Origin: Acidimicrobiales bacterium
GTDB taxonomy: Bacteria; Actinomycetota; Acidimicrobiia; Acidimicrobiales; QHCF01
DNA: 64,000 nt
Assembly (NCBI GenBank): GCA_039583615.1
Contig: JAVKSQ010000005.1
Span: 1,004-65,003 of the forward strand
Direction of reading: 5' to 3'
Each line of letters opens with the position of its first letter. Position 1 is the first letter of the stretch. Positions 15,996 to 60,188 of the stretch are shown here, piece by piece. Made by a program: the position numbers and the translations under genes. The notes under the pieces are model-generated. The model made no database searches. It was not told the DNA's origin and worked only from the letters and a program-made list of their open reading frames with translations.

Positions 15996-16166
15996 ACCCA
16001 GCTTCCCTCCCCGTTCGAGCCTGCGGTAGGCTAGCCCGGTAGCTGAGCCGGTGCACGGTTGGATTGTCGAGCGCCAGGAGCGGGCAGCTCCTGAGGCGTC
16101 GTGGGTTTCATCGTCGGCCGGTCGGGCGGACGGTATGTCTCGCCCGGGCCGGAGAGGGAGGGCTCG

Positions 16167-17006: not shown

Positions 17007-17125
17007 TGTCGGCGACGAGCTGGGAGCTGCCCGGGGCTGGCTGGCGCCCTCGACCGGCCTGGGGTGGGGACGAGCACCTGGTGGCTGGCCCCACGTCTGG
17101 CCGATCGCGGCTCCGGGTCACTTGA

Positions 17126-18652: not shown

Positions 18653-18707
18653 GCCAAGCTCTCCGGCTGGCCCGACCAACTGCACCTGGAAGCCAGCCCT
18701 TAGGGCT

Positions 18708-19676: not shown

Positions 19677-19776
19677 CCCCTATGCTCCTTTCCTGGGGCG
19701 ACGACCCCGATCGGCGCGGGCCTGCTCTGAGGGCTCCAGCCCGGACCGAGCGGTTCGACGGCTCCATTTGCGCGCC

Positions 19777-20715: not shown

Positions 20716-21503
20716 AGCAGTGTCTCCCGACCTTGGTAGCCCTGGGTGTGGAAGAGGAGGCGGCGTATGTGGAAGCCGAGCACCTGCAGCATCCGGGCCA
20801 CCGCCCACGGGGTGAGGCGCCACCACGTCTCCCGTGGGTTACCGGCCCGCGGATCGGGCATGAACCCGAGATTGGCGGGCAGGGCGCGGCTGCGGGCCAG
20901 GGGGAGACGGGTCCAGCCGGGCAGGCGGCTGAGGGCGCTGGCCGAGCGGCTGGCCGGCTCGGTGACGATCACCGACTGGCGGGTGAGGTGCAGAGCGCGG
21001 GCGAGGGCGAGAAAGGGGTCTCGTATGTGCAGGAGAACCGATCCCAGCATGGCCACATCGACCGGACCGATGTCCTGGGGTATCTCGTAGACCGAGCCGT
21101 AGACCATGCGAGCATTGGACTCCATCGCGGCGTGGGCGAACCAGAAGCTATTGTTGATCTGCCGCATTCCATGAGCGCGCTCTACGGCGAACGCGGTGGG
21201 TGGTACGCCATTGAACGGCACCAGGTCCCAGCCGTCGGACTCGTCAGAGAGATCGTAGGCAACCACCTCGGCTCCGCGGCGCTCCATCTCGAAGCAGACA
21301 AAGCCGCTGGCGGTACCCACCTCCAGGACGCGCTTGCCCTCGAAGCTGACGCGGCCTAGGTAATCGGCCACTCTATGTCTGAGGTCCCACGGACCTCGCT
21401 GCAAGCCTATTTCCGGCAGGTCCATAGTATGGTAGAAGCGGCAGTCATGAACGCTCTCGACTACCCGGGGCGCGGCATACAGCTGCTGGCGAGGGCGGAT
21501 CAT
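20658..21503 (-). CDS. Class I SAM-dependent methyltransferase
   Basis: Strings KRVLEVGTASGFVCFEMERRGAEVVAYDL and VDVAMLGSVLLHIRDP support the call. Confidence 0.7.
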   Translation of the reverse strand: MIRPRQQLYAAPRVVESVHDCRFYHTMDLPEIGLQRGPWDLRHRVADYLGRVSFEGKRVLEVGTASGFVCFEMERRGAEVVAYDLSDESDGWDLVPFNGVPPTAFAVERAHGMRQINNSFWFAHAAMESNARMVYGSVYEIPQDIGPVDVAMLGSVLLHIRDPFLALARALHLTRQSVIVTEPASRSASALSRLPGWTRLPLARSRALPANLGFMPDPRAGNPRETWWRLTPWAVARMLQVLGFHIRRLLFHTQGYQGRETLLYTVVGERANPVAPVELSW

Positions 21504-21554
21504 CGAGGAAAGCCTAATGCGTCCGAGACCACGATAGTCGCCGGCCCGGGCCGT

Positions 21555-22808
21555 TCAATGGGCGGTGGAAGCACGAGTGATCTCCTCGTACATGGCCAGG
21601 ACTCGCCCGGTGCTGGCGGCGAAGTCATACCTGGCCGCCGCCCATCGCCTGGCCCGCTCTGCGATCACCCTCGCCCGCTCCGGGTGGGTGAGCAGGTCGA
21701 CCACCGACTGGGCCATGGCGGTCGGTTCGACGGTGATCGCCGCAAATGCGCCGGGGCCCGCCTCCTCCACCACCCCCTCGACGGCGATGGGGGTAGCCAC
21801 CACTGGCAGGCCGTAGAGCATGGCCTGGGGGACCTTGAACTTGAGGCCGGCCCCGGCGAGCAGGGGGGCCACGAACACGTCGGCGTCCTCGTACAGCGGA
21901 GCCAGGGAAGGGACGTACCCGGTGACGATCACGTTGCCAGCAGCGCGCGCCTGGAGCAGCTCGGGAGGGTGGGTGCCGGCGATGATGCAACGAGCGTGCG
22001 GGCACCGAGCCTCGACGGACGGCCACACCTGATCGAGGAACCACAGGGCGCTTCGGTAGTTCTCCGGCCGGTCGAAGGCACCGGTCATCAGCACGTTTCG
22101 ACCTTCCCGCCGTGATGCTCGGGCCCGGCTGGGCTCTGCGCTCGGCGCTTGCAGGGGCGGATCGATCACCAGCATCGGTTGGTCCAGGCCCGCCTGGGCG
22201 AGGTGTCGGCGATCCTGGTCCTTGAAGACCAGGGCCGCGTCGGAGCCGGCCATTCGGCCCAGCTCCCAGCGGCGGAACATCTCCAGTGACAGCCCGAAGG
22301 CTCGTTGCTTGAGCCATGAGCGGCGGTCGAGGCTCCGTCGGCGAGCGTCGGCCTGCCAAGGAAGGTCGTAGAGGACGAGGACCACGGGCACGTCGGGGGC
22401 GACGCGCTTGACCGCCCCCAGCACAGCAAGGATGCGCTCTGCCCAGTGCAACTCGATCACGTCCGCCGATCGAAGGTGCTCGGCGGCGGGAGCGAGCATT
22501 GCCTCCAGCTCCTCCCGAGGCGCCCCCAGCGTTCCCCACCGTAGGGCGGCAAGGCCCGGATACGCCCGGATGCAGCCCCGCTGGGCACGGCGGCGGACGG
22601 TTTGCGCCCTGGGGACGCGTAGCAGGCCCATCAAGTGGGCAGCCCCCGGCAGGCAGCTGGTATCGCTCTCGGCGCCGGCCCAGGACAGGCCGAAGAGCGC
22701 TACCTGGTTGTCGGTTCCCAGATGCTCGAGGTGGTGGAGGAGGAACTCCCCCCCGGCGTGGTCCACGCCAGGGTATGTGAGGAAGGGGGAGATGGCGACG
22801 ATGCGCAA
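21555..22808 (-). CDS. Glycosyltransferase, GT4-like (GT-B fold)
   Basis: The C-terminal string VFVAPLLAGAGLKFKVPQAMLYGLPVVATPIAVEG is typical of the GT1/GT4 donor-binding domain. Confidence 0.8.
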   Translation of the reverse strand: MRIVAISPFLTYPGVDHAGGEFLLHHLEHLGTDNQVALFGLSWAGAESDTSCLPGAAHLMGLLRVPRAQTVRRRAQRGCIRAYPGLAALRWGTLGAPREELEAMLAPAAEHLRSADVIELHWAERILAVLGAVKRVAPDVPVVLVLYDLPWQADARRRSLDRRSWLKQRAFGLSLEMFRRWELGRMAGSDAALVFKDQDRRHLAQAGLDQPMLVIDPPLQAPSAEPSRARASRREGRNVLMTGAFDRPENYRSALWFLDQVWPSVEARCPHARCIIAGTHPPELLQARAAGNVIVTGYVPSLAPLYEDADVFVAPLLAGAGLKFKVPQAMLYGLPVVATPIAVEGVVEEAGPGAFAAITVEPTAMAQSVVDLLTHPERARVIAERARRWAAARYDFAASTGRVLAMYEEITRASTAH

Positions 22809-22858
22809 GGGGAGTGCATGCTACCCGAGCGCTTGTCCGGGCCTCGGACCGACGTCGC

Positions 22859-23386
22859 TCAAGGCAGGGGGCGGGCGATGACGGACCTCAGCCGACTCGG
22901 GGAGCCAGCCACGACCGTATAGGGCTCAACGTCGTCGAGGACCAAAGAGCCCACCCCCACGACCGCATGCTCGCCTATTGTGCAGGGGCCGACGACAGTG
23001 ACGTTGGTCGACAGCCAGGCGCCCTCGCCCACTACGACATCGCGGCCTTCCCTCGGCACTGCCACCTGGCGTTGCGGCCCGAACTTGGTGAAGTCGTGAG
23101 TCCCGGTGAGAATGACCACGTTGTGACCGAAGAACGCATAGGGCCCCACGGTAATGGTCCCCGATGACAGGTTGAAGAGCGTGTTGTTCACCACCGAGGT
23201 GGGGTCGAGGCGCAGCCTGCTCGGATCTCCGTAGACCATCGCCCTCGTAAGAAGCGGGTCCACTCCCTGCTCGACAAGTGAGTGGCTGGCCAGGGCCCGC
23301 TCGACCAGGCGGGTCACGGAGCGGCCGATGAGAGGCCAGGCCATCCGGGCGAGCCTGTCGAGAGCTCGTGACATGGTATCTATCAT
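22859..23386 (-). CDS. Left-handed beta-helix (hexapeptide-repeat) acyl/acetyltransferase
   Basis: Hexapeptide strings ITVGPYAFFGHNVVILTG, VVVGEGAWLSTNVTVVGPCTIGEHAVVGVGSLV. The start is ATG at complement of 23384-23386 (MIDTMSRAL), 1 nt after the upstream stop. The track's longer N-terminus overlaps the GT2 gene. Confidence 0.8.
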   Translation of the reverse strand: MIDTMSRALDRLARMAWPLIGRSVTRLVERALASHSLVEQGVDPLLTRAMVYGDPSRLRLDPTSVVNNTLFNLSSGTITVGPYAFFGHNVVILTGTHDFTKFGPQRQVAVPREGRDVVVGEGAWLSTNVTVVGPCTIGEHAVVGVGSLVLDDVEPYTVVAGSPSRLRSVIARPLP

Positions 23387-23387
23387 C

Positions 23388-24329
23388 TCAGGGCGGAGCC
23401 CGGCGTTGAAGGGGCCGTGACCCGCTCTCCTCCGGCCCGGGCCCGGGACATCCGAGACGCCGGAAGGTGAAGTCGACCAGGGCAGACCATCGGATATGAG
23501 CCAGACGGGTTCGATCTGGCTCCCCGGCTGCCAAGTCACGGAAGATCCATGCCAGTGTTCGCACCACTTGGCGTACCCGAAACCAGACGGCTGCATGTTC
23601 AAAGACAAAGACCAGGCGGTTACGGTTATCCAGGTACTGCAAGAGTGGAGAGGGACGGGCGGTGTCATGCCAAGCCTGGGCACTAGGCACACACTCGATG
23701 GCCCAGCCGGCGGCGCCTAGCCGCAGGCAATAGTCGACATCCTCATAATACAGGAAATAGCGCTGATCAAGTAAGCCCACCTGGCGGAACGCTGCTAGCC
23801 TCAGCAGGACGCATGCTCCATCCAACCATTGAGCATCATGCGGGGGACGATCCAGCCAACTATCGATCTCGGGCATTCGAGGATCCACGATGTGCCGTGG
23901 GTCCCACGTGCGAGGGTCGACGAAGCCTCCGGCCGCGTAGAGGCGCTCTGGATCGGCGTGAAGACCGAGCGCGGGACCTACCGCACCGAGACTTGGTCGT
24001 TCCTCCAGTCGCCGGGCCAGCCGCTCCAGGGCACGGGTGCCCAAAGCGCAGTCATGGGTGAGCAGGACAACCGCCTCCAGCCCGCCCCCGGCGTCGGCCA
24101 GGATCCGCAGGCCGGCGTTCATCCCGGCTGAGTACCCAGCATTGTGCGGGAGCTCGAGCACCTCCACCCAGGGAAATGCGGCGCGGATCTCACCCACCGA
24201 CCCGTCGGCTGAGTAGTTATCTACCAATATAACACGGGCGGGCGCAACCGATTGGCTTTGAAGATGCTCCAGACAGGACGCAACTCCGGGCCAAAACCTA
24301 TAGTGGAGGATTACGGCGCCGGTATTCAT
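23388..24329 (-). CDS. Glycosyltransferase family 2
   Basis: Strings AVILHYRFWPG...VILVDNYSADGS and LPHNAGYSAGMNAG support the call. The start is ATG at complement of 24327-24329 (MNTGAVIL). Confidence 0.8.
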   Translation of the reverse strand: MNTGAVILHYRFWPGVASCLEHLQSQSVAPARVILVDNYSADGSVGEIRAAFPWVEVLELPHNAGYSAGMNAGLRILADAGGGLEAVVLLTHDCALGTRALERLARRLEERPSLGAVGPALGLHADPERLYAAGGFVDPRTWDPRHIVDPRMPEIDSWLDRPPHDAQWLDGACVLLRLAAFRQVGLLDQRYFLYYEDVDYCLRLGAAGWAIECVPSAQAWHDTARPSPLLQYLDNRNRLVFVFEHAAVWFRVRQVVRTLAWIFRDLAAGEPDRTRLAHIRWSALVDFTFRRLGCPGPGPEESGSRPLQRRAPP

Positions 24330-24393
24330 GAGGGATCTGGCTGACCTAACCCGGAGCTGGGACCGGCTCGGACCAGACTGTACCATGGTATAA

Positions 24394-25143
24394 GTGGACG
24401 TCATGCGCCATGCTGCGGAGCGGGTCGTGAGCCTGGTGCGGGGGTATCCCTGCGTCCCTCTCCGACGGGCAATCATGCAGGGAAGGGCCAGATGGGTGCA
24501 ACGGCTTCCGCCCCGTGTGAGGCATGCCCTCGATCTTGACGCCGTCCCGACGAACCTCCCGCCCCTCGCCACGCGCTTCTCTGCTCACACCTGGCGGTCG
24601 GTCGATCCTGCCCGAGTGGAGATCGGGGCGGGTCCCCGTCCCACGCCGGGCTACGTGCACGTCGACGCCGACCGGCGGGCCCGCCACGTCGAGCACCTGG
24701 CTCCGGCCTGGAAGCTGCCGTTTCCTGACCATTCGCTCCAGGAGCTGCTGGCCATCCACGTGCTGGAGAACGTTCACCCGACCCGAGTAGGAGAGACTCT
24801 TGTGGAATGGCGGCGGGTCCTTCGCCCGGGTGGTGTCGCTCATGTACAGGTGTACGATGCCGCGAGGATCTTCCGGGCGTTCCTGGGGGGGTCGACCGAC
24901 CTGAAGTGGCTTCTTCTCAGTGCGATATTCGGCTTCGTATCGCCCTACGGCGGCCCTACGGAGCCTCGTCGCGCAAGCGCCTATGACTTCGACCTCCTTC
25001 GAGATTTCCTCTTGGCGGCCGGCTTCGAGAGCGTCACGAACCTTACCGATCCGGAGCCCGGCGGCCGGATCGAGGACTGGGCCGTCCTCACATCTCGCCT
25101 CGACCTGGTGGTGGCGGCCACCGCCGGCCACGCCAGCGCATAG
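24394..25143 (+). CDS. Putative SAM-dependent methyltransferase (Methyltransf_11-like)
   Basis: Strings VEIGAGPRPTPGYVHVD, LLAIHVLENVHP and VLRPGGVAHVQV support the call. The start is GTG 24394 or ATG 24403. Confidence 0.6.
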   Translation: MDVMRHAAERVVSLVRGYPCVPLRRAIMQGRARWVQRLPPRVRHALDLDAVPTNLPPLATRFSAHTWRSVDPARVEIGAGPRPTPGYVHVDADRRARHVEHLAPAWKLPFPDHSLQELLAIHVLENVHPTRVGETLVEWRRVLRPGGVAHVQVYDAARIFRAFLGGSTDLKWLLLSAIFGFVSPYGGPTEPRRASAYDFDLLRDFLLAAGFESVTNLTDPEPGGRIEDWAVLTSRLDLVVAATAGHASA

Positions 25144-25149
25144 CATCCT

Positions 25150-26349
25150 GTGTCGTCCGGTGGTGCGTTCCGAGCCCTGGGCCAGCCGCCAAGGATGACG
25201 TCCCCCGGGATGGTCGCCGGACCCGCCGGAGGAAGCCACCCGGATGGGCGCCTGCGGGTGGGCGTCGACCGGTCGCTGCTGCGACCTGGCCGGGCCAGCG
25301 GGCACGGTCGGGTATGGGGGCAGGTCCTCGCCGGGCTGGCGGCCCATGTCCACCTCCGACCGGTCTCCACCGAAGGCCGAGCCCCGAGCTGGCGAGGCGA
25401 GAGAGGCTGGCAGGAGCCCGACATATGGCTGATCGACGGCCACCGGCCCCTGGCCAGAGACAGTGCCAAGCCCGTCGTCGCGGTTGTCTACGAGGCCGGC
25501 TGGTGCACTCCCTACCTCCGCCGCTTCCTGCATCCGGGTACTGCCCGGTACCTCGACGACAGCACCGACGCCGCCATGAGGGTGGCCGATCATGTGATCA
25601 CGCTCTCCGAGTGGAGCCGGTCACAGGTCATCGAGCGGTACGGCTTGTCGCCCCACCGGGTGCATGCCGTGCCCTTGGGGGTCGATCTCGACACGTTCAG
25701 GCCAGGGCTGGAGGGGGGCGTCGACATCGTGGCGGCCGCCTCCGCCCGCCCGGTGGACCACTATGTGCTCTTCGTGGCCACCATTCACCCGCGCAAGAAC
25801 CTGGCCGGTCTGCGCCAGGCAATGACAGCCCTTGCTCGCCGTGGCTTCTCCCAGTCTCTCGTCCTGGTCGCCGGGGCGATATCCGATTGGCGGGACTCAC
25901 CGGACCTGGAGTGGGTGGCGGAGGCCGACCTACCCGGCGCCACCGGCCACATGGTGCGAGTCCGAGAGCCCAGTGACACCTGCCTGGCGGCCCTGATGGC
26001 CGGAGCCGACGCCTTCTGCCTGCCGAGCTTCTCGGAGGGGTTCGGCCTCACCGCCTTGGAAGCGCTGGCCTGCGGGACGCCCGTGGTCGTCTCCAACCAG
26101 GGCGCGCTGCCCGAGGTGGTGGGGGGCGCCGGGTTGGTGGTCGAGCCTACGCCAGGCTCTCTGGAGAGCGCCCTGGCTCGGATCCTGAGCAGCTCTGACC
26201 TGTCAGACCGCCTGAGGAAGGCCGGGCGCGCCAGAGCGGAGGCGTTCGCCTGGCACCGGACGGTCTCCGGCTGGCTCTCGGTCATGGCCGGGGCGGCCGA
26301 GGATGGGGCCAGGTCCGAGCAACCGAGCACCACCCTGCGTGCTCGGTAG
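25150..26349 (+). CDS. Glycosyltransferase, GT4-like
   Basis: Strings LFVATIHPRKN and FCLPSFSEGFGLTALEALACGTPVVVSNQGALPEVVG (E-x7-E region) support the call. The true start is probably ATG 25195 or 25210, before RLRVGVDRS. Confidence 0.8.
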   Translation: MSSGGAFRALGQPPRMTSPGMVAGPAGGSHPDGRLRVGVDRSLLRPGRASGHGRVWGQVLAGLAAHVHLRPVSTEGRAPSWRGERGWQEPDIWLIDGHRPLARDSAKPVVAVVYEAGWCTPYLRRFLHPGTARYLDDSTDAAMRVADHVITLSEWSRSQVIERYGLSPHRVHAVPLGVDLDTFRPGLEGGVDIVAAASARPVDHYVLFVATIHPRKNLAGLRQAMTALARRGFSQSLVLVAGAISDWRDSPDLEWVAEADLPGATGHMVRVREPSDTCLAALMAGADAFCLPSFSEGFGLTALEALACGTPVVVSNQGALPEVVGGAGLVVEPTPGSLESALARILSSSDLSDRLRKAGRARAEAFAWHRTVSGWLSVMAGAAEDGARSEQPSTTLRAR

Positions 26350-26355
26350 CTGTGG

Positions 26356-27393
26356 TCAGGACCTTGTCGCCACCACTGCCAGCTCTTCGGCTCGGTCTGG
26401 GTTCTGCACGGAGCGGAGGTTCGCCACCAGCGTGGCACCCAGGTTGGCATCGGCGGGATCCCCGTTGTGGCGGGCGATGGCGGTGCTGGCCCCGAACATG
26501 GGGCCGGCATCGAAGGCCACCGGCATCCTCACCCACTGCGAGAAGCCGGCCTGGTGGAGGATCCTGGCCAGCCCACTTGCGGTAAAGAGGGTCAAGTGGC
26601 GGGGAGGCTCCAGCCCCCGCCAGTTCCTGCCATACCGTCGGTGACCGGCGGAGGCCAGGTTGGGAGTGGCGATCCACACCTTGCCGCCGGGTTTGAGGAG
26701 GCGCCAGCAGGATCGCAACAAGTCCACCGGCTGGTGGACATGCTCGATGACGTGGTTGACGGTGATGACGTCAAAGGTGCCCGGAGCGAAGCTGTCCTCG
26801 CCAAAGACCTCGTTGCGAACCGGAAGGCCGGCAGCCACGGCCAATGCCGCCGCCTTGGCATCAGGCTCGATGCCGTCCACCTGCCAACCAGCCGACCGCA
26901 TTTCCAGGAGGAACCGGCCACTGCCACAGCCGATATCGAGCAACCGCCGGGGACCCTCGGGCCGGTCCAGGTACCGTACCCACCGACTGGCCCGCCGCCG
27001 GGTGCCCGGAGCAAGGGCCAGCGCCAGCCCCCCGACCCGCCAACTGGGATTAAACTGATAGCCGTGCCTGCGCCGGAGGTAGCCGTTCCTGAGCGCTCGT
27101 CGCGAGTAGGCGATCATGGTGCTGGGCTCTGCGCAAGATACGTCGGGCGAGCAGTGAGTGAGGTAGGATCGGTAGGCGAAGGAGATGGAGTCGCGGCTGG
27201 GTCGTGGATTGAGATAAGCCGACTCGCACTGGTGGCAAAGGTAGATCTCCCAGCGGTCCGAAGAGCATTGGAACACGTGGTCGAGCAGGGCGGAGTACAA
27301 GGGTGTGCCTTGCTGGCCGCCGCAGGCGGGGCAGCATGTGAGGAGCTCTAAGTCGCCGCCCGCCCACTTGCCCGGGGTCATCGTCTCTTCCAT
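26356..27393 (-). CDS. Class I SAM-dependent methyltransferase with N-terminal Cys4 zinc-ribbon-like segment
   Basis: Strings CCPACGG...CHQCES and RLLDIGCGSGRFLLEM...FDVITVNHVIEHV...LKPGGKVWI support the call. The start is an ATG (MEETMTPG) with GAGGTG upstream. The track start at 27420 is a TTG. Confidence 0.75.
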   Translation of the reverse strand: MEETMTPGKWAGGDLELLTCCPACGGQQGTPLYSALLDHVFQCSSDRWEIYLCHQCESAYLNPRPSRDSISFAYRSYLTHCSPDVSCAEPSTMIAYSRRALRNGYLRRRHGYQFNPSWRVGGLALALAPGTRRRASRWVRYLDRPEGPRRLLDIGCGSGRFLLEMRSAGWQVDGIEPDAKAAALAVAAGLPVRNEVFGEDSFAPGTFDVITVNHVIEHVHQPVDLLRSCWRLLKPGGKVWIATPNLASAGHRRYGRNWRGLEPPRHLTLFTASGLARILHQAGFSQWVRMPVAFDAGPMFGASTAIARHNGDPADANLGATLVANLRSVQNPDRAEELAVVATRS

Positions 27394-27505
27394 GGGGTGC
27401 TCACCTCGGGACCGAACCAACGCAACACGGACGGTCAGCGTCGAGGCTAGCAGCCCTCCACAGACGGGCCTTTCTCGAAGTCAGTCAGTCCCGCACTGAT
27501 CAGGA

Positions 27506-28516
27506 ATGGAGAAAGTGGGTAGCCACTCACCGCTCGTGAGCGTGATAGTTCCCACCTATGACCGCCCAGAGTACCTGGGGCAGGCTCTGGCCAGTGTGCT
27601 GGCGCAGCGCTGCGACGATCTGGAGGTCATCGTCTCGGACGACGCTGGTCCCAACGACATTGGCTCACTGGTCGAGTCATTTGGGGACCGGCGGCTCAAG
27701 TACAGGCGCAATACCACCAACCTGGGAGTGCTGGGCAATACCGTAGCTGCACTGGGCCAGGCCGGGGGAAAATACATCGCCATTCTCAACGACGACGACC
27801 TGTGGGGCCCACTGTTCCTGGAGCGACTGGTGGCCGCCCTGGAGGATAGGGATGATCTCGTCGTCGCCTTTTGCGATCATTATATCATCGACAGTGAGGG
27901 CCGGATCGACGCCGCGGCGACGGAGCGCCGTACTCATGACTACAGCCGGGATCGCCTTAGCCCTGGAGTACACCATCCGTTTGGTGAGATCGCGCTGGTC
28001 AACAGGAGCATAGGTGCCGTCATGGGAGCGGTCTTCCGACGCCGATCCATTGACTGGGCGGCCCTCCCAGCCGAGGCCGGACCCGCCTACGACACATGGA
28101 TCTTGTATCTGGCGGCCAAGAGTGGCCTGGGCGCATGCTATGTCCCTGAGAGACTGACATATTATCGGTACCATACAGGTCAGCAGACCTTTCAGAGCGT
28201 CCTGGACTTCCACCTCGGACTGGTCTTCTGCTACCAGGCCTTCCTCGATGACCAATCGCTGTGGACGATGCATCGCCAGCTTCGAGCGCTCCTGGGTACC
28301 GCCTACGTGGACTGCGGGCTCACCCTGGTGCGGGCCGGAAGGGCCAGGGAGGCCAGAGCCAGCCTGATGCGAGGCCTGTGGCTGGGCCCCGGACCCAGGT
28401 CCGTGGTCGGGCTGCTGCTCACGCTGGGTCCCAGCTGGGCGCCTCGATGGGTGACTCGGGTCGTGCGGACGTCCAAGGGCCTGGCTGGGGCGGGAGGGGT
28501 CGCCGGCCGGGACTAG
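27506..28516 (+). CDS. Glycosyltransferase family 2
   Basis: Strings VSVIVPTYDRPEYLGQALASVLAQ, EVIVSDDAGP and AILNDDDLW support the call. Confidence 0.85.
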   Translation: MEKVGSHSPLVSVIVPTYDRPEYLGQALASVLAQRCDDLEVIVSDDAGPNDIGSLVESFGDRRLKYRRNTTNLGVLGNTVAALGQAGGKYIAILNDDDLWGPLFLERLVAALEDRDDLVVAFCDHYIIDSEGRIDAAATERRTHDYSRDRLSPGVHHPFGEIALVNRSIGAVMGAVFRRRSIDWAALPAEAGPAYDTWILYLAAKSGLGACYVPERLTYYRYHTGQQTFQSVLDFHLGLVFCYQAFLDDQSLWTMHRQLRALLGTAYVDCGLTLVRAGRAREARASLMRGLWLGPGPRSVVGLLLTLGPSWAPRWVTRVVRTSKGLAGAGGVAGRD

Positions 28517-28525
28517 GTTGTCCGG

Positions 28526-29239
28526 GTGGCCCGGGCTGATCTCACCGGCTGGCCTCGCCGACCGGGTCGCCTTCCTGCCGCCCTGCTCCGGCGGGTGCTG
28601 CCCAGCCATCCACGGTTCGGCTTCGCTTGGGTCCACCTCGAGGACGGCTCGATCACCTTCCGCGAGGAGGGCTTCGTGGCCGCGGGCTCACCGGCGTCGC
28701 TCTTGGCGCGACACAACTACGAGACTGCCTGCATCCGGCATCTGCTGAGAGACGTCGACGCCCTTCGGTCCCTGGAGGTCGGATGCGGCTACGGCCGACT
28801 GAGCCCCGTGCTGGCCGAGTTCTCCCGGGCCCACCTCGCGCTCGACATCAACGAGGCGGCCCTGGAGCAGGCTCGCACCATGTACCCCGAGCTCACCTTT
28901 CAGAGAGCCTCGGCCTCCGACCTGCCGTTTCCGAGCGACTGCTTCCAGCTGGTGACCACCTGGACGGTGGTTCAGCACATCCCGCCAGGCCAGATAGCCG
29001 CCGCATGCTCGGAGCTGATCCGGGTCCTGGTCCCCGGTGGGGTCCTGCTCACCTGCGAAGAGACCCGCCAGGCGGGGCGTCCGGCGGGTGGGCGGCGACC
29101 ACCACACACCTGGCACCGTGGCGTGGAGGACTACCAGCGCCTGTTCGAGCCCCTCAGCCTGGCCTACTCATCTTTCATCCACGAGCTCGACCGGCTGCCG
29201 GGAATGCAGTCGCCTGGACGGGTGATGCTCTGGCGCTAG
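28526..29239 (+). CDS. Class I SAM-dependent methyltransferase
   Basis: Strings SLEVGCGYGRLSPVLA, FQLVTTWTVVQHI and LVPGGVLLTCE support the call. Confidence 0.75.
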   Translation: MARADLTGWPRRPGRLPAALLRRVLPSHPRFGFAWVHLEDGSITFREEGFVAAGSPASLLARHNYETACIRHLLRDVDALRSLEVGCGYGRLSPVLAEFSRAHLALDINEAALEQARTMYPELTFQRASASDLPFPSDCFQLVTTWTVVQHIPPGQIAAACSELIRVLVPGGVLLTCEETRQAGRPAGGRRPPHTWHRGVEDYQRLFEPLSLAYSSFIHELDRLPGMQSPGRVMLWR

Positions 29240-29266
29240 CCTGGATCTGCGCTAACGGAAGGAGCC

Positions 29267-30307
29267 ATGACCGATCCCGTGGCAGCTGCGGGAGGACGCT
29301 CATCTAGTTGGGCCAACTGGAATTGGGCGACATCCAAGGCGGGTGATGCCTGCCGGTTGGCGGCCGGGATATGCAGGGGGTTGCACGGCCTTCGCGGGCG
29401 CGGGCGCGGGGGCCATCTTCTTCATGGGCTCATGCGTGAGCAGCTGGGCGGCGCAGCTGCTGGCAGCTGGGACATCCCGATGCGGAGGGGCCATGAGATG
29501 CGCTCGCCCTGGTCCACCGTCCAGAGCTGGACGGCGGCCTTCACCGGCCAGTACGACGAGGCGGAGATAGACCTCCTGCTTAGCTTCGCCGACCAGGGAA
29601 CCCTGCTGTTGGACGTGGGCGCCTCGGTCGGGTTCTGGACCGTCCCACTCGCCATGGCGGCCCGGGATAGGCAGGGCCGCGTCCTGGCCATCGAGCCTCT
29701 GTCCGCCAACGTCGGATTGCTGAGAGCCAATCTGGCGCGCAACGGTCTGGGCCATGTGGTGGACATCTGTCCGGTAGCCCTGGGCTCGGACCCGGGCGAG
29801 GCAGTGGCGGTGGTGGAGCCGGGAGGTGCTGGAAATGCGTGGGTGGACCCGCCCCTGCCCGAGGGCGGCCAGACCTGGGGGGCGGCCTGGACCGAGACCG
29901 TCCGGGTAACACCGCTGGACGCCATGGCGCTGCCGCCCTCGTGCATCGGCCTGCGGTGCAGCGTCGTCAAGCTCGACGTGGAGGGCTTGGAGATGGCGGT
30001 TCTGGAGGGTGGCGCCAACTTCATGACACGTCACCGACCCGTCCTCCTCGGTGAATTCTCTCCAGAGTGCTTCGCCCGACGGGGGGTGCCCGGCGACGCA
30101 CCCCAGCGGTGGGCCGAGAGCACGGGCTACTGCTGCCACGAGGTGGTGCACGAGCGCAACAGCCGCATCTCGGACCAGTACCGGGTCGTCCTGGTGGCTC
30201 GCCGGAGCGGAGAGGCCCGTGGTGACGGAGCCCTTCTCCTGACCCCGGCCGACCTGCTGGCCCCGGACGCCCTCCTGACCCGGGGGGACATGGCCGTCCC
30301 GCCCTGA
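29267..30307 (+). CDS. FkbM-family methyltransferase
   Basis: Strings LLDVGASVGFWTVPLA, LAIEPLSANVGLLRANL and KLDVEGLEMAVLEG support the call. AAGGAG precedes the ATG. Confidence 0.8.
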   Translation: MTDPVAAAGGRSSSWANWNWATSKAGDACRLAAGICRGLHGLRGRGRGGHLLHGLMREQLGGAAAGSWDIPMRRGHEMRSPWSTVQSWTAAFTGQYDEAEIDLLLSFADQGTLLLDVGASVGFWTVPLAMAARDRQGRVLAIEPLSANVGLLRANLARNGLGHVVDICPVALGSDPGEAVAVVEPGGAGNAWVDPPLPEGGQTWGAAWTETVRVTPLDAMALPPSCIGLRCSVVKLDVEGLEMAVLEGGANFMTRHRPVLLGEFSPECFARRGVPGDAPQRWAESTGYCCHEVVHERNSRISDQYRVVLVARRSGEARGDGALLLTPADLLAPDALLTRGDMAVPP

Positions 30308-54973: not shown

Positions 54974-55046
54974 TCCGGGGTAGCTCAATCGGCAGAGCAC
55001 GCGGCTGTTAACCGCGGTGTTGAGAGTTCGAGTCTCTCCCCCGGAG
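54974..55046 (+). tRNA. tRNA-Asn (anticodon GTT)
   Basis: Hand fold: TCCGGGG TA GCTC AATCGGCA GAGC A CGCGG CTGTTAA CCGCG GTGTT GAGAG TTCGAGT CTCTC CCCCGGA G. Confidence 0.9.
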
Positions 55047-55063
55047 CACCCGCCGCAGTCCCC

Positions 55064-55136
55064 GGGCCCGTAGCTCAGTGGTCAGAGCATGGGACTCATA
55101 ATCCCCTGGTCGTGGGTTCGATCCCCACCGGGCCCA
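55064..55136 (+). tRNA. tRNA with CAT anticodon (elongator Met; Ile2 cannot be excluded)
   Basis: Hand fold: GGGCCCG TA GCTC AGTGGTCA GAGC A TGGGA CTCATAA TCCCC TGGTC GTGGG TTCGATC CCCAC CGGGCCC A. The G1:C72 pair argues against an initiator. Confidence 0.85.
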
Positions 55137-55194
55137 CTGATGTCTCTCCTTTTCAGCCGCCTTGTTCCGTCTGTTCAGCCCCTCTGATGAGGTC

Positions 55195-55230
55195 AACCCA
55201 ACGGTCGACCCAACAGCTAACCCAACAACG
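55195..55230. repeat. Three 12-bp-spaced direct repeats (A/G)ACCCAAC between tRNA-Met and the integrase remnant (arm-site-like)
   Basis: aacccaac at 55195-55202, gacccaac at 55207-55214 and aacccaac at 55219-55226, read directly. Confidence 0.7.
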
Positions 55231-55248
55231 GGGAGGGGGCCATTGCCG

Positions 55249-55550
55249 GGGAGTGTGCGGCAGCGGCGCCCGGGAGTGTGGGAGCTGAGGGTCTACGCCG
55301 GGAAGAGGCCAGGCGGGTACGCCATCGCCACACCAGCTTCGTGGGCTCCAAGCGGCCTGCTGGCACCGAGCTGGCCCGCCTGGTCGCCGAGCAGGAGCGG
55401 GCGCCAGTGGTGGCCGACGAGGAGAGCCGGGGTGGGAACCGGTCACCACCGTCAACGACGCCATCGGCGGCTGGCGGGACAACGGATGGCAGGACCTCAG
55501 CCCCACCACCACCCGGCGCTACCAGAGCCTGTGGACGGTCCACGCGCCTG
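55249..55550 (+). pseudogene. Tyrosine-integrase N-terminal remnant, split over three frames and lacking the catalytic domain
   Basis: Frame a reads GSVRQRRPGVWELRVYAGK. Frame b reads RHTSFVGSKRPAGTELARLVAEQE. Frame c reads TVNDAIGGWRDNGWQDLSPTTTRRYQSLWTVHA. These strings match the usual N-terminal arm-binding and SAM-like region order of actinobacterial phage-type integrases. Nothing integrase-like follows about 55550. Confidence 0.6.
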
Positions 55551-55652: not shown

Positions 55653-55702
55653 ACAAGAACAGAACGGTCATCCTTGCATTTTGTTCTTGTCAACGCTAGC
55701 CT
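55653..55702 (+). promoter_or_regulatory. Candidate promoter (TTGCAT-17 nt-TAGCCT) overlapped by a perfect 9-bp inverted repeat upstream of the cassette
   Basis: ACAAGAACA (55653-55661) and TGTTCTTGT (55682-55690) are exact reverse complements with a 20-nt spacer. TTGCAT lies at 55674-55679 and TAGCCT at 55697-55702, about 22 nt before the first cassette ATG (55725). Confidence 0.3.
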
Positions 55703-55724: not shown

Positions 55725-55958
55725 ATGGCAGAGCAGGGGAAGCCCAGAGGTCGCACCGTCTTCTCCGTTCGACTGGATGGCTTGGAACTGCCGTCGGAGA
55801 TCACCCTTCGGATCGCCGTCGCCGTGCGCCGCGCCATTCTTGCCGAGATGGCTGAAGTCGATCTTGTGTCCGGCTTTCGCGTCCAGGATTTGGCAGCCCT
55901 GGAGAGCGGTGGCGGGACGCAGGGAATTGCGATCGTCGCCGACGTTGCGGAGGACTAG
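55725..55958 (+). CDS. Small ORF (77 aa), candidate precursor peptide or accessory; no Cys, C-terminal ...LESGGGTQGIAIVADVAED
   Basis: This is the last 77 codons of track ORF 55278..55958. The ATG is preceded by AGGGAG. The stop is followed after 2 nt by the next GTG. Confidence 0.5.
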   Translation: MAEQGKPRGRTVFSVRLDGLELPSEITLRIAVAVRRAILAEMAEVDLVSGFRVQDLAALESGGGTQGIAIVADVAED

Positions 55959-55960
55959 CT

Positions 55961-56377
55961 GTGCGCTCGATGCAAGTCGCCAGGGCTCACGAATGCCTCT
56001 GCCCGAGCGGACGTTGCCGGGAGGGGGCCAAGTTGCTGGGCGTAGTTGGGACTGATGGCTGTGTCAGCTTCCTGACGCCAGCCATTCCAATAAGCGAGGT
56101 CTTTGTTGACAAGGCATTGGCGATCGGGCGCACCGGTGCCCGATTCCGTTTCGCTGAGCCATGCGCGCAGAGTGACTGTGAGCACTGGGCTGGGGAGCGC
56201 TGCCAGTTGATCGATCGTTTCATCGTAGACGGACCGTGCGACGATGTGGACTCCTCGAGAACGAAGCTCCCGGTGTGTGGCATCCGGGTCTCTTGCCGAT
56301 GGTATGGACAGCGGGGCCGGCGTGCCTGCGCGGTGTGTCCCATGGTCATTCGTGAGCCTTTAGCGGCGATTTCATAA
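55961..56377 (+). CDS. Cysteine-rich protein (138 aa, 12 Cys), function unknown
   Basis: Track ORF. Cys strings are ECLCPSGRC, DGC, EPCAQSDCEHW, ERC, GPC, PVCGIRVSC and RACAVCP. It is tightly coupled to the upstream ORF. The overlapping minus ORF is low complexity and contrary to the operon direction. Confidence 0.5.
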   Translation: MRSMQVARAHECLCPSGRCREGAKLLGVVGTDGCVSFLTPAIPISEVFVDKALAIGRTGARFRFAEPCAQSDCEHWAGERCQLIDRFIVDGPCDDVDSSRTKLPVCGIRVSCRWYGQRGRRACAVCPMVIREPLAAIS

Positions 56378-56408
56378 CGAAGATTTCTCAACCAGAAGGA
56401 GGAGTCGC

Positions 56409-56657
56409 ATGGAAGACGAACCGAGAGAGGATGAGGATACCGTCGTCCCGATCAGGGAGCGGCATGTCGTCATGACGCCTACCGGCGTTACCTTTGTTCT
56501 CAATGAGGAAGACCAGCGTCAGGCTCGTCGCTGCCTTGAGCGGACCGGCAACATCACCATCAATTTCGGGGAAGTGACTGTCTCAAGTCTCAGTGAGATC
56601 AGGCGGCTCGAGCGGATCGCTGACGGGCCCGATGGCGGTGTCGGTCCGATCGACTGA
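56409..56657 (+). CDS. Small ORF (82 aa), candidate RiPP precursor; acidic N-terminus, C-terminal ...RIADGPDGGVGPID
   Basis: A strong SD (AAGGAGG at 56396-56402) lies 6 nt before the ATG. The stop is followed after 2 nt by the GTG start of the DUF692 gene. Confidence 0.6.
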   Translation: MEDEPREDEDTVVPIRERHVVMTPTGVTFVLNEEDQRQARRCLERTGNITINFGEVTVSSLSEIRRLERIADGPDGGVGPID

Positions 56658-56659
56658 CA

Positions 56660-57541
56660 GTGCCAACGCCCAGGTTGACGCCGGCCATCGGTCTCGGCTC
56701 GGATGCCGTTGCCGTGGGCATGGCATACAGCAGAGCCGCTGCAGGCCTTGTATGCGACTTGCTCGATGATCTCGACTACGTCGAGTATCCCTATGAGTTG
56801 CTGATGTGCAACGCCGCCGCGGCCGAGATGGCTTGCAACTCGACCGCCGTGCTGCACTGCGCAAGTCTGTCATTGGCGTCGGGTGACCCACCCGACGCGG
56901 CGGTCCTCCACACCGTCGCCGACTGGGCCGATCGGCTCGACTCTCCCTGGGTGGGTGAGCATTTCGCATTTGTGGCCGCCCGGAACCCTGGCCCGTGGGC
57001 AGGGGACGACCCGGGGCGGGAAGACAGAGTCTTCAACATCGGCTTTGCGATCAGCCCGCCGTTGAACGCCGACACGGTCGAGAGCGTTGCAGAGGCGTTG
57101 GCGGCCGTCGTGACGGTTGTGCGACGACCATTCGTTATCGAGAACTCCCCGGTCTATTTCCCAATGCCGGGTTCCGGGATGGGGCAGGGAGAAGCGTTCA
57201 CGGCACTAACTCGCCTCAGCGATGTTGGCGTGCTGATGGACTTGGCCCATCTGCTGATTACCTGCGACACGATGGGATTGGACCCGTTGGCTGAGCTCCG
57301 CCGCTTTCCGCTCGATCGCGTGGTCGAGGTGCATCTCTCTGGGGTTTCGCGGGATTCCGGTGTGCTGTGGGACGATCATGCGTCCGCCCCCGTAGCAGCG
57401 GAGTACGAGCTCTTGAACGTCGTACTCCATGATGCGCCAGTTCGCGCGATCACGCATGAGTACAACTGGGCGCCTAGGTTTCCCGCGGACGTCGCCCGCC
57501 GGGAGATTGACCGCACCCACCAGATACTGGGCTCCAGGTAG
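56660..57541 (+). CDS. DUF692-family protein (MbnB/TglH-like multinuclear non-heme iron oxidative enzyme, MNIO)
   Basis: Family-order strings are present: AIGLGSD, VLHCASLSLAS, WVGEHFAF, PFVIENSPVYF, GVLMDLAHLL, VVEVHLSG, LWDDHAS and ITHEYNW. These provide His/Glu/Asp ligand candidates in the order I recall for MbnB-type TIM-barrel enzymes. Confidence 0.8.
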   Translation: MPTPRLTPAIGLGSDAVAVGMAYSRAAAGLVCDLLDDLDYVEYPYELLMCNAAAAEMACNSTAVLHCASLSLASGDPPDAAVLHTVADWADRLDSPWVGEHFAFVAARNPGPWAGDDPGREDRVFNIGFAISPPLNADTVESVAEALAAVVTVVRRPFVIENSPVYFPMPGSGMGQGEAFTALTRLSDVGVLMDLAHLLITCDTMGLDPLAELRRFPLDRVVEVHLSGVSRDSGVLWDDHASAPVAAEYELLNVVLHDAPVRAITHEYNWAPRFPADVARREIDRTHQILGSR

Positions 57542-57569
57542 TGACCGAGGGCAAGGCGGCCCCGAGGCC

Positions 57570-59513
57570 ATGACGGTCGAGACTCGCGCCGTCAACGCCA
57601 TGATCGCGCGAGGTCTCGTCGAACCCTCATTCCTTGTCGCTCTCGATCAGGATAGAGGCCGGGTACTCGACGACATGGGGATCTCCAGCGGGACGCGCCA
57701 GGATTTCATCGGACTTGATTGCCATCGCCTGGCGCTGATGGCCACGTTCATATGTAAGGTGAAGAACAATGACCTCTGGAGCACCCTGCCCCTAACCCGG
57801 GCGCTGCTACAGGAATACGGCAGCGAGCTAGAGGTGTTCGGGGTCTTCAGCCGACGGAGTCCGCAGCGTGGTGGCTCGCTTCACGAGCGCGTCAGCGCGT
57901 TGGTCGAGTGCCTTCTGTCCTACGCGTCCGCTCGCCGCGGCCAGGTCCCAGGCCTGGAGGATGTCGTCCGCCACGAGTGGCTTGTAGCCCGGTTCTCGAA
58001 CGGGTGGGGACTAGAGGCATCGTCGTTGGACACGGTCGATGACGACCCTCCCGAGGCGCGGCCAGCGAACCTCTGGCGACCAAGGATTCGAGGGACGGTC
58101 TTGGTGCAGAGCTACGAGCACGACCCGCTGCGTGTGCAGCTTGCATGGCAAGCACGGGAGTGGACCAGATCGATGGCTCCGCCGACCGAGCCAACATTTT
58201 TGTGCTACTCGTTGGGCGACACGCCGGGAAGCCGGCTCCGAGTCTTTAGGATGGATCCAGCCGTGGCTCTGATTGTCGGCTGGGTGGATGGTCAGCGGTC
58301 TCCGATCGAAATTGCCAATCTCATGGGTGCAGGCACGGACGCGGCGCTCGTTGTCCGAGTCCTTCTCGCCGCAGCTCAGGAGGGGATCATTCGTTCCCCG
58401 AGCGCTGAGGTCTTGGCCGCGCTTCAACGACATCACGGAGACGTCGGTGGCCTGCCGGCTAAAAGCTCGAAGGAGCACGAACCACTCTTCGGCGGTAGCC
58501 GTCAGCGGGGGCCGGATCAAGTGCTCGATCTTGTGAGCGGCTACGCCGCTGGCCGCCTCCTATACACGCTGCAGCGAATCGGAGCCCTTGGGCGCTTCGG
58601 CACTCCGAGTAGGGCTGCTTCTGTCGCGGTGGAGCTCGGCGTTGATCGAGCGTGGCTCGAGGCCGTGGTGCAGTTTCTCGCGGTGACTGGAGGCGTCTTC
58701 CGCCAGCTCGACGGCGGCCGTTACGTCGTCGAGTTGGACGAACGCGAACGACAGCGGCTGAACTTCGAGTTGACCAAGTTCGTCGGGGCCTACGGAGCGT
58801 GCCTCGATGCGGTTGGGCCGGCTCCTGACGTCGTCGACGCTGACGCATTTGCTGATGCGTTCAGCGCGTCGGTTCACAGCCGTGCTGATCGCCCCTACCA
58901 TGGCTCGTTGATTCCGGGACTGCTCCGCGAGTTTGGCGTGGCATCGGGACTCTTGGATCTTGGCTGTGGGACCGGTGACCTTCTCATCGATCTAGCGGTC
59001 AGCGACGAGGGCTTCCACGGGATCGGAATCGATGAGAACCGCGCGATGTGTGCTCGTGCGGTGGCGGAGGCCGGACGAGCAGCTGTCCTGCGACGAGTGC
59101 GCATATTTAGTGGCGATGCGTTCGATGTCCTGGCAAATCTTCCGCTAGATGCGATGTGCCCGATGACGGCGGCGCACTCGGCGAGCTTCTTCAACGCCCT
59201 GTTTGCGAACGGGCATCGCCGAGCGGTTGACATCCTCACGCTGCTCAGCGACCGGCTCGGCCGCCGCCTTTTGTTCATCGACGACTACTACGGGCAGCTG
59301 GGTGTGGACTTCGATGCTCATGTTGGTCTGACATGGTCGATGATGCAGGACCTCGTCCAAGTCTGTTCCGGGCAGGGCGTGCCACCGAGGGAGCGGGTCG
59401 ATTGGGAGGCGGTGTACCAACGTGCGGGGTGCCGGCTTCTCCGCTCGTATGAGGGCACGCTCGGCGGGTTCCCGCGCTTTATCCACGTGGTCCAACTCGC
59501 AGCCGCCTCGTAG
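57570..59513 (+). CDS. Three-module fusion: MNIO-partner-like N-terminal region, PqqD-like recognition element, winged-helix plus class I SAM O-methyltransferase
   Basis: The start is ATG 57570 (MTVETRAV...). Mid-region: RVFRMDPAVALIVGWVDGQRSPIEIANLMGAGTDAALVVRVLLAAAQEGII (PqqD/RRE-like). Then LVSGYAAGRLLYTLQRIGALGRFGTPSRAASVAVELGVD (OMT dimerisation/wHTH-like). Then LLDLGCGTGDLLIDLA and IGIDENRAM (SAM motifs I and II). Confidence 0.7.
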   Translation: MTVETRAVNAMIARGLVEPSFLVALDQDRGRVLDDMGISSGTRQDFIGLDCHRLALMATFICKVKNNDLWSTLPLTRALLQEYGSELEVFGVFSRRSPQRGGSLHERVSALVECLLSYASARRGQVPGLEDVVRHEWLVARFSNGWGLEASSLDTVDDDPPEARPANLWRPRIRGTVLVQSYEHDPLRVQLAWQAREWTRSMAPPTEPTFLCYSLGDTPGSRLRVFRMDPAVALIVGWVDGQRSPIEIANLMGAGTDAALVVRVLLAAAQEGIIRSPSAEVLAALQRHHGDVGGLPAKSSKEHEPLFGGSRQRGPDQVLDLVSGYAAGRLLYTLQRIGALGRFGTPSRAASVAVELGVDRAWLEAVVQFLAVTGGVFRQLDGGRYVVELDERERQRLNFELTKFVGAYGACLDAVGPAPDVVDADAFADAFSASVHSRADRPYHGSLIPGLLREFGVASGLLDLGCGTGDLLIDLAVSDEGFHGIGIDENRAMCARAVAEAGRAAVLRRVRIFSGDAFDVLANLPLDAMCPMTAAHSASFFNALFANGHRRAVDILTLLSDRLGRRLLFIDDYYGQLGVDFDAHVGLTWSMMQDLVQVCSGQGVPPRERVDWEAVYQRAGCRLLRSYEGTLGGFPRFIHVVQLAAAS

Positions 59514-59516
59514 CCG

Positions 59517-60188
59517 ATGGCCACAGCGACCATTAGGCCCGTGGCAGCGACCTGGGACGGTGTTTTGCCGCCCAGCGAGCTCAGTCAGCTGTTGGAGTAC
59601 GCGGTGTATCGCGAGAGCGAGTTCGTCGACACCCAGGTCCTCGGTGCCGATGATGGCGCGGTCTCGGTCGTGGATCGGAACATGAGACGGAACACGCACT
59701 TACGGGGCACCGCTAATGTGCCATGTGCTGTCATGCGGCGCCTCAAGGAGTATATCCCAGTGTTGGCCCGGTCCATTGGTCAGGATGATGACAGATGTTC
59801 AGACGGTGTGTACGAGGCAGAGATTACCGCCACGGGACATGGTGGCTTCTTCACCGCTCACGTCGACGATGCGAATGCTCGTGTACGGGATCGCTCGATC
59901 AGCTTCGTTCTCTTCTTCAGCGAATGCCCCAGACCATTTCGAGGTGGCCATCTCTGCATCGAACGCGACTGGAGGGACGACGATCAACTGTTTATCTTCG
60001 ATGCTGTGCGGGATGGCCGACTGAGCAGGTCTGAGGTAGCCGAGATCATAGAGCCCAAAGCCAACCGGCTCGTCGTCTTTGCGAGTCATCGGCTCCATGA
60101 GGTTCGGCCGGTGTGGACCAGGTCGAGCCAGTTCCGGTGCTCGAGATTCACGGTGACCGGCTTCCTCCGATCCTCCGATCGGCGTTAG
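59517..60188 (+). CDS. 2-oxoglutarate/Fe(II)-dependent oxygenase (prolyl-4-hydroxylase-like)
   Basis: FFTAHVDD provides the HxD, ISFVLFFS follows, and NRLVVFASHRLHEVRPV provides the distal His and Arg. It lies 3 nt after the preceding stop. Confidence 0.75.
   Translation: MATATIRPVAATWDGVLPPSELSQLLEYAVYRESEFVDTQVLGADDGAVSVVDRNMRRNTHLRGTANVPCAVMRRLKEYIPVLARSIGQDDDRCSDGVYEAEITATGHGGFFTAHVDDANARVRDRSISFVLFFSECPRPFRGGHLCIERDWRDDDQLFIFDAVRDGRLSRSEVAEIIEPKANRLVVFASHRLHEVRPVWTRSSQFRCSRFTVTGFLRSSDRR

Follow-up and report, generated by a model that had tools for sequence, protein, structure and literature searches.

Ferredoxin:thioredoxin reductase is built from a small cysteine-rich catalytic subunit, which holds a [4Fe-4S] cluster and a disulfide, and a small variable subunit. 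Among the precursors of multinuclear nonheme iron-dependent oxidative enzymes (MNIOs), the bufferins are members of the DUF2282 or BUF_6/12Cys families that are made with Sec (general secretory pathway) signal peptides (PMC12452194), and the target described for ApyHI is a C-terminal Asp (PMC12452194). The locus we describe here invites comparison with all of these. It lies in a stretch of 64,000 nucleotides from an Acidimicrobiales bacterium (contig JAVKSQ010000005.1; hereafter the window) and consists of two small genes: one for a protein of 138 residues with 12 cysteines, which we call the Cys-rich protein (55961..56377, + strand), and, directly ahead of it, an open reading frame (ORF) for a 77-residue protein, ORF77 (55725..55958, + strand, ATG at 55725). 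Just downstream is an apy-like gene cluster that includes an MNIO. An earlier note, made from the sequence alone, had suggested that the Cys-rich protein might be an MNIO substrate or, failing that, a metal or Fe-S accessory protein. Sequence comparison argues that it is a member of a large, orphan, and uncharacterized family outside the known kinds, that ORF77 is its own partner, and that the two make up an autonomous two-gene cassette.

The gene itself is much as the earlier note had described it. Read from the ORF list and the sequence, it starts with GTG, and its 12 cysteines (residues 12, 14, 19, 34, 68, 73, 81, 93, 106, 112, 123, and 126) fall in the strings ECLCPSGRC, DGC, EPCAQSDCEHW, ERC, GPC, PVCGIRVSC, and RACAVCP. 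Its cysteine fraction of 8.7% compares with a median of 1.6% and a 99th percentile of 6.6% for the 341 stop-to-stop ORFs of at least 100 residues in the window. The ORF77 stop codon (TAG at 55956-55958) leaves the 2-nt gap to the GTG that had been reported, and a Shine-Dalgarno sequence, GGAGGA, can be read directly at 55949..55954 (+ strand), 6 nt before the GTG and still within the end of ORF77, as would suit translational coupling of the two genes. Judged by eye, the N terminus (MRSMQVARAHECLC...) has no hydrophobic signal-like stretch, and the h-region of a Sec signal peptide is likewise not seen in MRSMQVARAHECLCPSGRC, in keeping with the note's description of a protein without a signal peptide; the C-terminal residue is Ser.

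Which strand is coding had rightly been left for confirmation, for an antisense ORF of nearly the same size, encoding 134 residues, does exist in the ORF list (55987..56391, - strand). The two frames share their third codon positions, so the GC content at those positions cannot separate the strands. The homologous loci can. Over the region of homology, the + frame is free of stops in all 45 non-redundant loci, whereas the co-phased antisense frame is open in only 29 and interrupted in 16, with one to five stops both in L007, the closest relative, and in low-GC members from Bacteroidota. On this count, and with the antisense frame closed in that closest relative, the comparison shows that the Cys-rich ORF is a real + strand gene and that its antisense counterpart is a shadow of high GC content. 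Neither the 138-residue form, nor a 135-residue form, nor the antisense product occurs in a collection of 15 billion proteins, whereas ORF77, the precursor-like ORF82, the MNIO, and the 2-oxoglutarate (2OG) oxygenase of the window do; the Cys-rich gene was probably left uncalled in the source record.

A word-indexed search with the Cys-rich protein brought up 21 homologues, with identities of 40-58%. When 1.84 billion representatives were searched with a profile, the family grew to 1,098 clusters (counted at 50% identity) under a cutoff of E<=1e-3, and to 790 under E<=1e-10. Its loci come from at least six phyla (Actinomycetota, Gemmatimonadota, Alphaproteobacteria, Bacteroidota, Acidobacteriota, and Chloroflexota), and matches on plasmids add Cyanobacteria and Betaproteobacteria. 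The conserved core spans residues 14-127 (56000-56341). Whether all 12 cysteines are conserved was an obvious question to ask of the family, and the answer is that eight are: in 156 family sequences, C68, C73, C81, C106, C112, C123, and C126 are kept in 100% and C14 in 99%. The rest of the pattern does not hold up, C19 being kept in 65% of the sequences and C12, C34, and C93, which are specific to this window, in no more than 2%. The eight are spaced as C14 ... C68-x4-C73-x7-C81 and C106-x5-C112-x10-C123-x2-C126, and two of them are followed by proline, C14-P15 and C126-P127, the latter proline being near-invariant among the 22 closer family sequences. Other invariant or nearly invariant residues are P15, S16, G27, F48, R61-F62-R63-F64, W76, I108, R109, R113, W114, Q117, G119, and A122, which together give the signature C-P-S ... 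RFRFA-x2-C-x4-C-x2-W-x4-C ... C-x-I-R-x2-C-R-W-x2-Q ... A-C-x2-C-P. We refer to proteins with this pattern as the Cys8 family.

The earlier note had not recognized the family, and neither did any of our searches. There was no Pfam or NCBIfam match for the Cys-rich protein, for 75 family members, or for 10 divergent members and their neighbors; one of the 75 gave a NapG match at E=0.0025, which we took as noise. PADLOC and PHROG were likewise without a match to the Cys-rich protein, and searches of Protein Data Bank (PDB) sequences, with the single sequence and with a profile, returned noise only (IL-17A and mL49, for example). An AlphaFold2 (AF2) model of the protein (pLDDT 75, pTM 0.66) has a β-hairpin (24-43), short helices, a strand at 62-67, and C-terminal helices, and a Foldseek search with it against the PDB and BFVD gave nothing better than E = 1.4. 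Literature searches on the family found nothing, no convincing (Rosetta-stone) fusion was seen among its long members, and the copies on plasmids carry the public label 'hypothetical protein' or no annotation. It is because the family is widespread, uncharacterized, and without detectable relatives that we rate it as lying outside the known kinds.

What does accompany the Cys-rich gene is the small gene in front of it. A gene of about 77-94 codons lies directly upstream in every homologous locus for which there are gene calls. We built a partner hidden Markov model (HMM) from ORF77 and seven neighboring partners of Cys-rich homologues and used it together with tblastn and profile searches. In 46 of 50 non-redundant loci, the Cys-rich gene has a partner homologue beside it on its own strand, upstream in 45 and downstream in one (L046). 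The spacing from partner to Cys-rich gene is typically -4 to +14 nt, with overlaps of 1-4 nt frequent. Four loci have no intact partner: one holds a frameshifted remnant (L032), one runs into a contig end (L047), and two have no partner (L011 and L022). In one of these last, from Sphaerisporangium (L011:4248-6384), the Cys8 gene follows not a small partner but a proline-rich protein of 556 residues with a C-terminal transmembrane segment. All-against-all BLAST clustering of the neighboring ORFs turned up no third recurrent gene around the cassettes; what else recurred was either the antisense shadow or synteny within the genus Mesorhizobium. The closest cassette relative (L007:1-270) has two gene fragments in its vicinity, one 2OG-Fe(II)/prolyl-hydroxylase-like and one transposase-like, with no MNIO adjoining.

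The partners are the more variable of the pair, with a mean column identity of 23% against 27-40% for the Cys-rich protein. The AF2 model of ORF77 (pLDDT 68.6) is a small α/β domain with the order β1(10-16)-α1(24-45)-β2(51-55)-β3(67-73). ORF77 has no Pfam, NCBIfam, PADLOC, or PHROG match, and the best Foldseek hit of its model came at E 0.72. Across the partner family, G67 alone is invariant and L22 nearly so, and no Cys or His is conserved. G67 starts the hydrophobic last strand, which reads TQ-G-IAIV in ORF77 and EWL-G-IWI or GPI-G-FFV elsewhere. Residues 60-77 of ORF77 are GGG-TQGIAIVADVAED, and within its clade a GG pair stands 1-3 residues ahead of the Gly motif; most partners have neither this GG nor a recognized leader. 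We considered and rejected a ubiquitin- or ThiS-like C-terminal GG and a universal double-glycine leader, as the C termini are heterogeneous. The notion of a glycyl-radical 'spare part' (an RVxGY motif) was also dropped, since the motif differs and there is no motif of a radical S-adenosylmethionine (SAM) activase. By eye, the partners from Caulobacteraceae (P0176, P0177, P0185, P0186, and P0190, from L021 and its relatives) have an N-terminal extension, ...DRRTLLAAA...ASAA, of the kind recognized by the twin-arginine translocation (Tat) system, and the Cys-rich proteins encoded beside them have no signal; partners on two Streptomyces plasmids carry Sec-like signals, again by eye.

The MNIO next door finds its place once the apy-like genes are read as a unit of their own. 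Downstream of the Cys-rich gene come ORF82 (56409-56657), an ApyA-like precursor that matches NF050152 (39.7 bits, E 3.8e-10) and ends in Asp; the ApyH-like MNIO (56660-57541; 294 bits); an ApyI-ApyS fusion (roughly 57.5-59.5 kb; NCBIfam RiPP_bind_ApyI and RiPP_MTase_ApyS); and a 2OG-Fe(II) oxygenase (59517-60188; Pfam 2OG-FeII_Oxy_3). These four adjacent genes (56409-60188) make a compact cluster for a peptide that is ribosomally synthesized and then modified post-translationally (RiPP), with no P450 or radical-SAM gene among them. In 52 other cassette loci that we fetched, tblastn with the window proteins found no match to the ApyA-like precursor, the MNIO, the ApyI-ApyS fusion, or the 2OG oxygenase, and PF05114 is absent from the nine cassette loci with precomputed Pfam annotation. 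The link fails in the other direction as well. Five metagenomic relatives of the MNIO cluster (L053-L057) have the identical order of ApyA-like precursor, MNIO, ApyI-ApyS, and 2OG oxygenase at 49-57% identity; neither cassette HMM matches them, and the cassette is absent upstream in all three that retain upstream sequence (L053, with 4.7 kb; L054, with 2.3 kb; and L056). The adjacency of cassette and apy-like genes is thus a one-off among the loci we examined. With a partner adjoining in 46 of 50 loci and the MNIO link failing both ways, ORF77 is best assigned to the Cys-rich protein.

The earlier picture of a Cys-rich gene embedded between two candidate precursors is therefore not supported, ORF77 being the partner in the cassette and ORF82 the precursor for the MNIO. 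That ORF82 is the substrate is argued by its match to the ApyA family, by the C-terminal Asp kept in ORF82 and its homologues (GPID, TVID, TPID, and QPTD), and by the literature target of ApyHI. ORF77 has no match to the ApyA model (NF050152), which only ORF82 matches. ORF77 does end in Asp (...VAED), as the ApyA-like precursors do, and its closest homologues end in ...REL or ...REP; the shared residue is probably a coincidence, though ORF77 could be an accidental ApyHI substrate in this organism. As far as the comparisons go, the Cys-rich protein is neither a substrate nor a regular accessory of the neighboring MNIO cluster. What stands of the earlier interpretation is the metal protein, which is plausible; the MNIO substrate is unsupported.

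Plasmids offer further leads. In Spirosoma oryzicola (plasmid NZ_CP089546.1; L058/L061), a Cys8 family member (E 3.9e-42) closes a RiPP region whose genes share one strand and encode nitrile hydratase leader peptide (NHLP) and thiazole/oxazole-modified microcin (TOMM) precursors, LanM, a methyltransferase, TolC, and NHLP-type export ATP-binding cassette (ABC) transporters, one of them bearing a peptidase. The region ends with a DUF7005 protein (384 residues), a GG-leader peptide, and the Cys8 member, which comes directly after this 76-residue double-glycine-leader peptide (...LTDDALDAVSGG/VGGDKPNISPIITGPIGFINNP...). On a Nostoc plasmid, a divergent family member directly follows an NHLP precursor of TIGR03793 ending in ...AGG/IIRQPIGLVLDSLS. 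The two Streptomyces plasmid cassettes lie among nonribosomal peptide synthetase genes; their partners (L059:3706-3954 and L062:5705-5938) end in Cys (...GGRVAGIDTQSSTC and ...GRGVGIDPNEPAC). We made a position-specific scoring matrix of the Gly motif from the α/β partners, taking the 11 residues around G67. It picked out the Nostoc core (p=0.009) and the partners from A. vitis (p=0.0016) and Ralstonia (p=0.003), and did not pick out the ApyA-like peptide of the window, our negative control (p=0.85). These matches hint at a recognition motif, made up of a Gly and the hydrophobic residues after it, that is set behind varying leaders, as in RiPP systems.

The setting in the window has a story of its own. 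From 55.5 to 60.3 kb, cassette and apy-like genes alike, the GC content is about 0.62, against about 0.71 in the flanks. Before the cassette come genes for tRNA-Asn (54974-55047) and tRNA-Met (55064-55137), and in the stretch 54974-55450 the tRNAs are followed by what appears to be the decayed, frameshifted N terminus of a tyrosine integrase (GSVRQRRPGVWELRVYAGK ... FVGSKRPAGTELARLVAEQE). The segment is likely a genomic island holding both cassette and apy-like cluster, although a repeat search found no attachment-site direct repeat of a tRNA 3' end. From the Cys-rich gene to ORF82 is only 31 nt on the same strand with no terminator. Given the shared GC content, the tRNA and integrase-remnant setting, and this tight packing, the two sets of genes were probably acquired together and are probably co-transcribed. 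An inverted repeat with perfect 9-nt arms (ACAAGAACA / TGTTCTTGT, 20-nt spacer; 55653..55690) can be read directly about 35 nt upstream of ORF77, although the automated repeat search, whose length threshold it falls short of, did not report it; it stands in an AT-richer region and is a possible operator of the cassette or the operon. A second stretch of lowered GC content lies at 16000-30000 of the window (0.65-0.68 against about 0.72 in its flanks).

How might the cassette work? The reading we favor, to which we would give about an even chance, is that of an autonomous module in which a Cys8 metalloprotein binds or processes its co-encoded small partner, outside the apy-like pathway. The Cys-rich protein would be the cytoplasmic, larger subunit of the module, and its eight invariant cysteines would form two tetra-Cys metal sites, Fe-S or Zn, grouped as C14/C68/C73/C81 and C106/C112/C123/C126. 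Metal or Fe-S binding is the most plausible chemistry, suggested by those cysteines and the two Cys-Pro motifs. The cognate ligand or substrate would be the co-translated small partner, docked through its sole invariant element, the Gly and hydrophobic strand near the C terminus (TQ-G-IAIV in ORF77). Here we infer a physical interaction, in which the partner is processed or chaperoned: before its release, the Cys-rich protein would hold it or modify it post-translationally, and export would follow in some lineages. That in this genome an acquired apy-like MNIO RiPP operon begins with the module would be happenstance.

Several observations weigh against this reading. The scoring matrix did not pick out the Spirosoma peptide (p=0.42) or, at any significance, the partners on the Streptomyces plasmids, and the Nostoc value would fail a strict correction for multiple tests. 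In the AF2 monomer, the Gly strand of the partner lies within its own β-sheet, a placement more in keeping with a folded subunit than with a free core peptide. Around most cassettes, no peptidase, transporter, or other RiPP gene is present; about 130 residues without a recognized catalytic motif is small for an enzyme; and the packing of the cassette against the apy-like genes leaves room for local recruitment. A more ambitious version, doubtful though we think it, is that the Cys8 protein is the founding member of a new and very small family of metallo-maturases, or dedicated metallo-chaperones, acting on a Gly-hydrophobic precursor motif whose leaders have been swapped repeatedly. The leader would then be the α/β domain in most lineages (ORF77 included), an NHLP or double-glycine leader on the cyanobacterial and Bacteroidota plasmids, and a Tat- or Sec-like signal elsewhere.

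Other explanations have to be set beside that of a Cys8 metalloprotein acting on its partner. The pair could be a heteromeric redox or sensor protein, in which a Cys-rich subunit with an Fe-S center or redox-active dithiol is joined to a structural 'variable' small subunit for electron transfer, thiol-disulfide chemistry, or redox or metal sensing, the Caulobacteraceae complex being exported folded through Tat by hitchhiking on the signal of the partner. The invariant cysteines with their Cys-Pro motifs suit this idea, as does a partner that is a small α/β domain devoid of conserved Cys or His, and a Tat-type signal on the partner only is typical of complexes loaded with cofactor; the sizes, moreover, parallel those of the catalytic and variable subunits of ferredoxin:thioredoxin reductase, although without homology. 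We nevertheless think it unlikely. The protein has no ferredoxin-type or other known cluster motif and no match to an Fe-S family in Pfam or NCBIfam, no redox enzymes or regulators recur near the cassettes, and the signals on the Streptomyces plasmid partners are Sec-like rather than Tat-like, so that a folded complex could not be co-exported by them. Much the same gene order could be read as a toxin-antitoxin-like or otherwise selfish addiction module hitch-hiking on islands and plasmids, with its small gene first, a gene of about 130 codons second, overlaps of 1-4 nt, no conserved neighbors, a patchy spread across phyla, copies on plasmids, and, in the window, a low-GC island beside tRNA genes and an integrase remnant. 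This strikes us as quite improbable: there is no match in PADLOC defense models, Pfam, or NCBIfam (toxin and antitoxin models included), the partner model shows no DNA-binding fold and gave no Foldseek match, some partners bear export signals, and the downstream protein is better conserved than toxins usually are. We know of no toxin with eight invariant cysteines.

The remaining alternatives tie the cassette to its neighbors, or do away with the gene altogether. That the Cys-rich protein has been recruited locally as an apy-like accessory, one that supplies the MNIO or the 2OG oxygenase with iron or electrons, say, with ORF77 as a second precursor, draws on the shared strand, the gaps of 2 and 31 nt without a terminator, which make co-transcription likely, the even GC content of the island, and the Asp at the end of ORF77. 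We consider it a long shot, with MNIO genes in none of the 52 other cassette loci and the association unique to the window, the cassette in none of the three MNIO clusters that keep their upstream sequence, and ORF77 both unmatched by the ApyA model and closest to proteins that end in ...REL or ...REP. The idea of the earlier note that the MNIO might act on the Cys-rich protein itself, as on a bufferin-like precursor, draws only on the cysteines of that protein and its place beside the MNIO gene, and it is largely refuted and very improbable now: homologues in the 52 other cassette loci are not accompanied by an MNIO, no signal peptide or match to the bufferin or ApyA families was found, and the MNIO is of the ApyH kind, for which the literature target is a C-terminal Asp (PMC12452194), a residue kept by ORF82 and its homologues, whereas the Cys-rich protein ends in Ser. 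As for a gene on the minus strand, it matches the + ORF in size, but we give it next to no chance, as the frame is interrupted in a third or so of the loci (16 of 45), runs opposite to the operon, and encodes a product without a Pfam or NCBIfam family match and with the R/S/P-rich composition typical of a shadow frame.

Should the metallo-maturase version hold, we would be looking at an unrecognized, phylum-spanning class of RiPP-like products, found here beside an unrelated MNIO RiPP cluster. Even short of that, a family of more than 1,000 clusters at 50% identity in at least six phyla, with a Cys8 signature and a near-constant small partner, has had no family model and no similar structure. 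Defining the cassette keeps both of its genes from being mis-assigned to the MNIO pathway when RiPP clusters are mined. As a two-gene system, it is cheap and directly testable, and the Cys8 family may reveal a metallocofactor site, or a way of maturing peptides or proteins, that is new. The novelty lies in an uncharacterized family and its module, rather than in a demonstrated new mechanism.

Set against the described systems, the cassette keeps its distance from most. The Cys-rich protein differs from the ApyA precursors in having no NF050152 match and in ending in Ser, and from known Fe-S proteins (4Fe-4S ferredoxins, WhiB-like proteins, and SPASM) in having neither a canonical motif such as CX2CX2CX3CP nor an HMM match. 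With the bufferins (BufA), it has in common its richness in Cys and, in this window, its place beside an MNIO gene; unlike them, it has no Sec signal and no precursor family match, and its family is not MNIO-linked. Type II toxin-antitoxin systems offer the autonomous two-gene operon with the small gene first, the stop/start overlap, and the patchy distribution over islands and plasmids, but not the invariant Cys8 pattern or the export signals of some partners, and for the cassette neither a DNA-binding antitoxin fold, to judge by the partner model, nor a toxin family match was seen. Ferredoxin:thioredoxin reductase offers another parallel. It too is a pair of small co-encoded proteins, one of about 13-15 kDa, highly conserved, with seven or eight conserved cysteines including Cys-Pro, the other of about 8-9 kDa and variable. 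No similarity in sequence or fold to the Cys-rich protein was detected, however, the CPC...CPC...CHC pattern is absent, and some partners in the cassette have export signals. RiPP precursor/maturase pairs differ on other grounds: the Cys8 protein has only about 130 residues and no known maturase domain, most cassettes come without a protease or transporter, and, where those pairs have a disordered leader-core peptide, the usual partner here is, according to its model, a folded α/β domain. Yet they share with the cassette a small variable protein encoded beside a much better conserved partner (46 of 50 loci), and, where leaders are interchangeable (NHLP, Nif11, or double-glycine), an N terminus that varies by lineage with a short C-proximal motif kept. 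Two loci go further and place the Cys8 gene behind an NHLP precursor (Nostoc) or a GG-leader peptide (Spirosoma), in clusters with C39-type exporters. By analogy, then, it is a precursor/maturase pair or a small two-subunit metalloprotein that the module most resembles.

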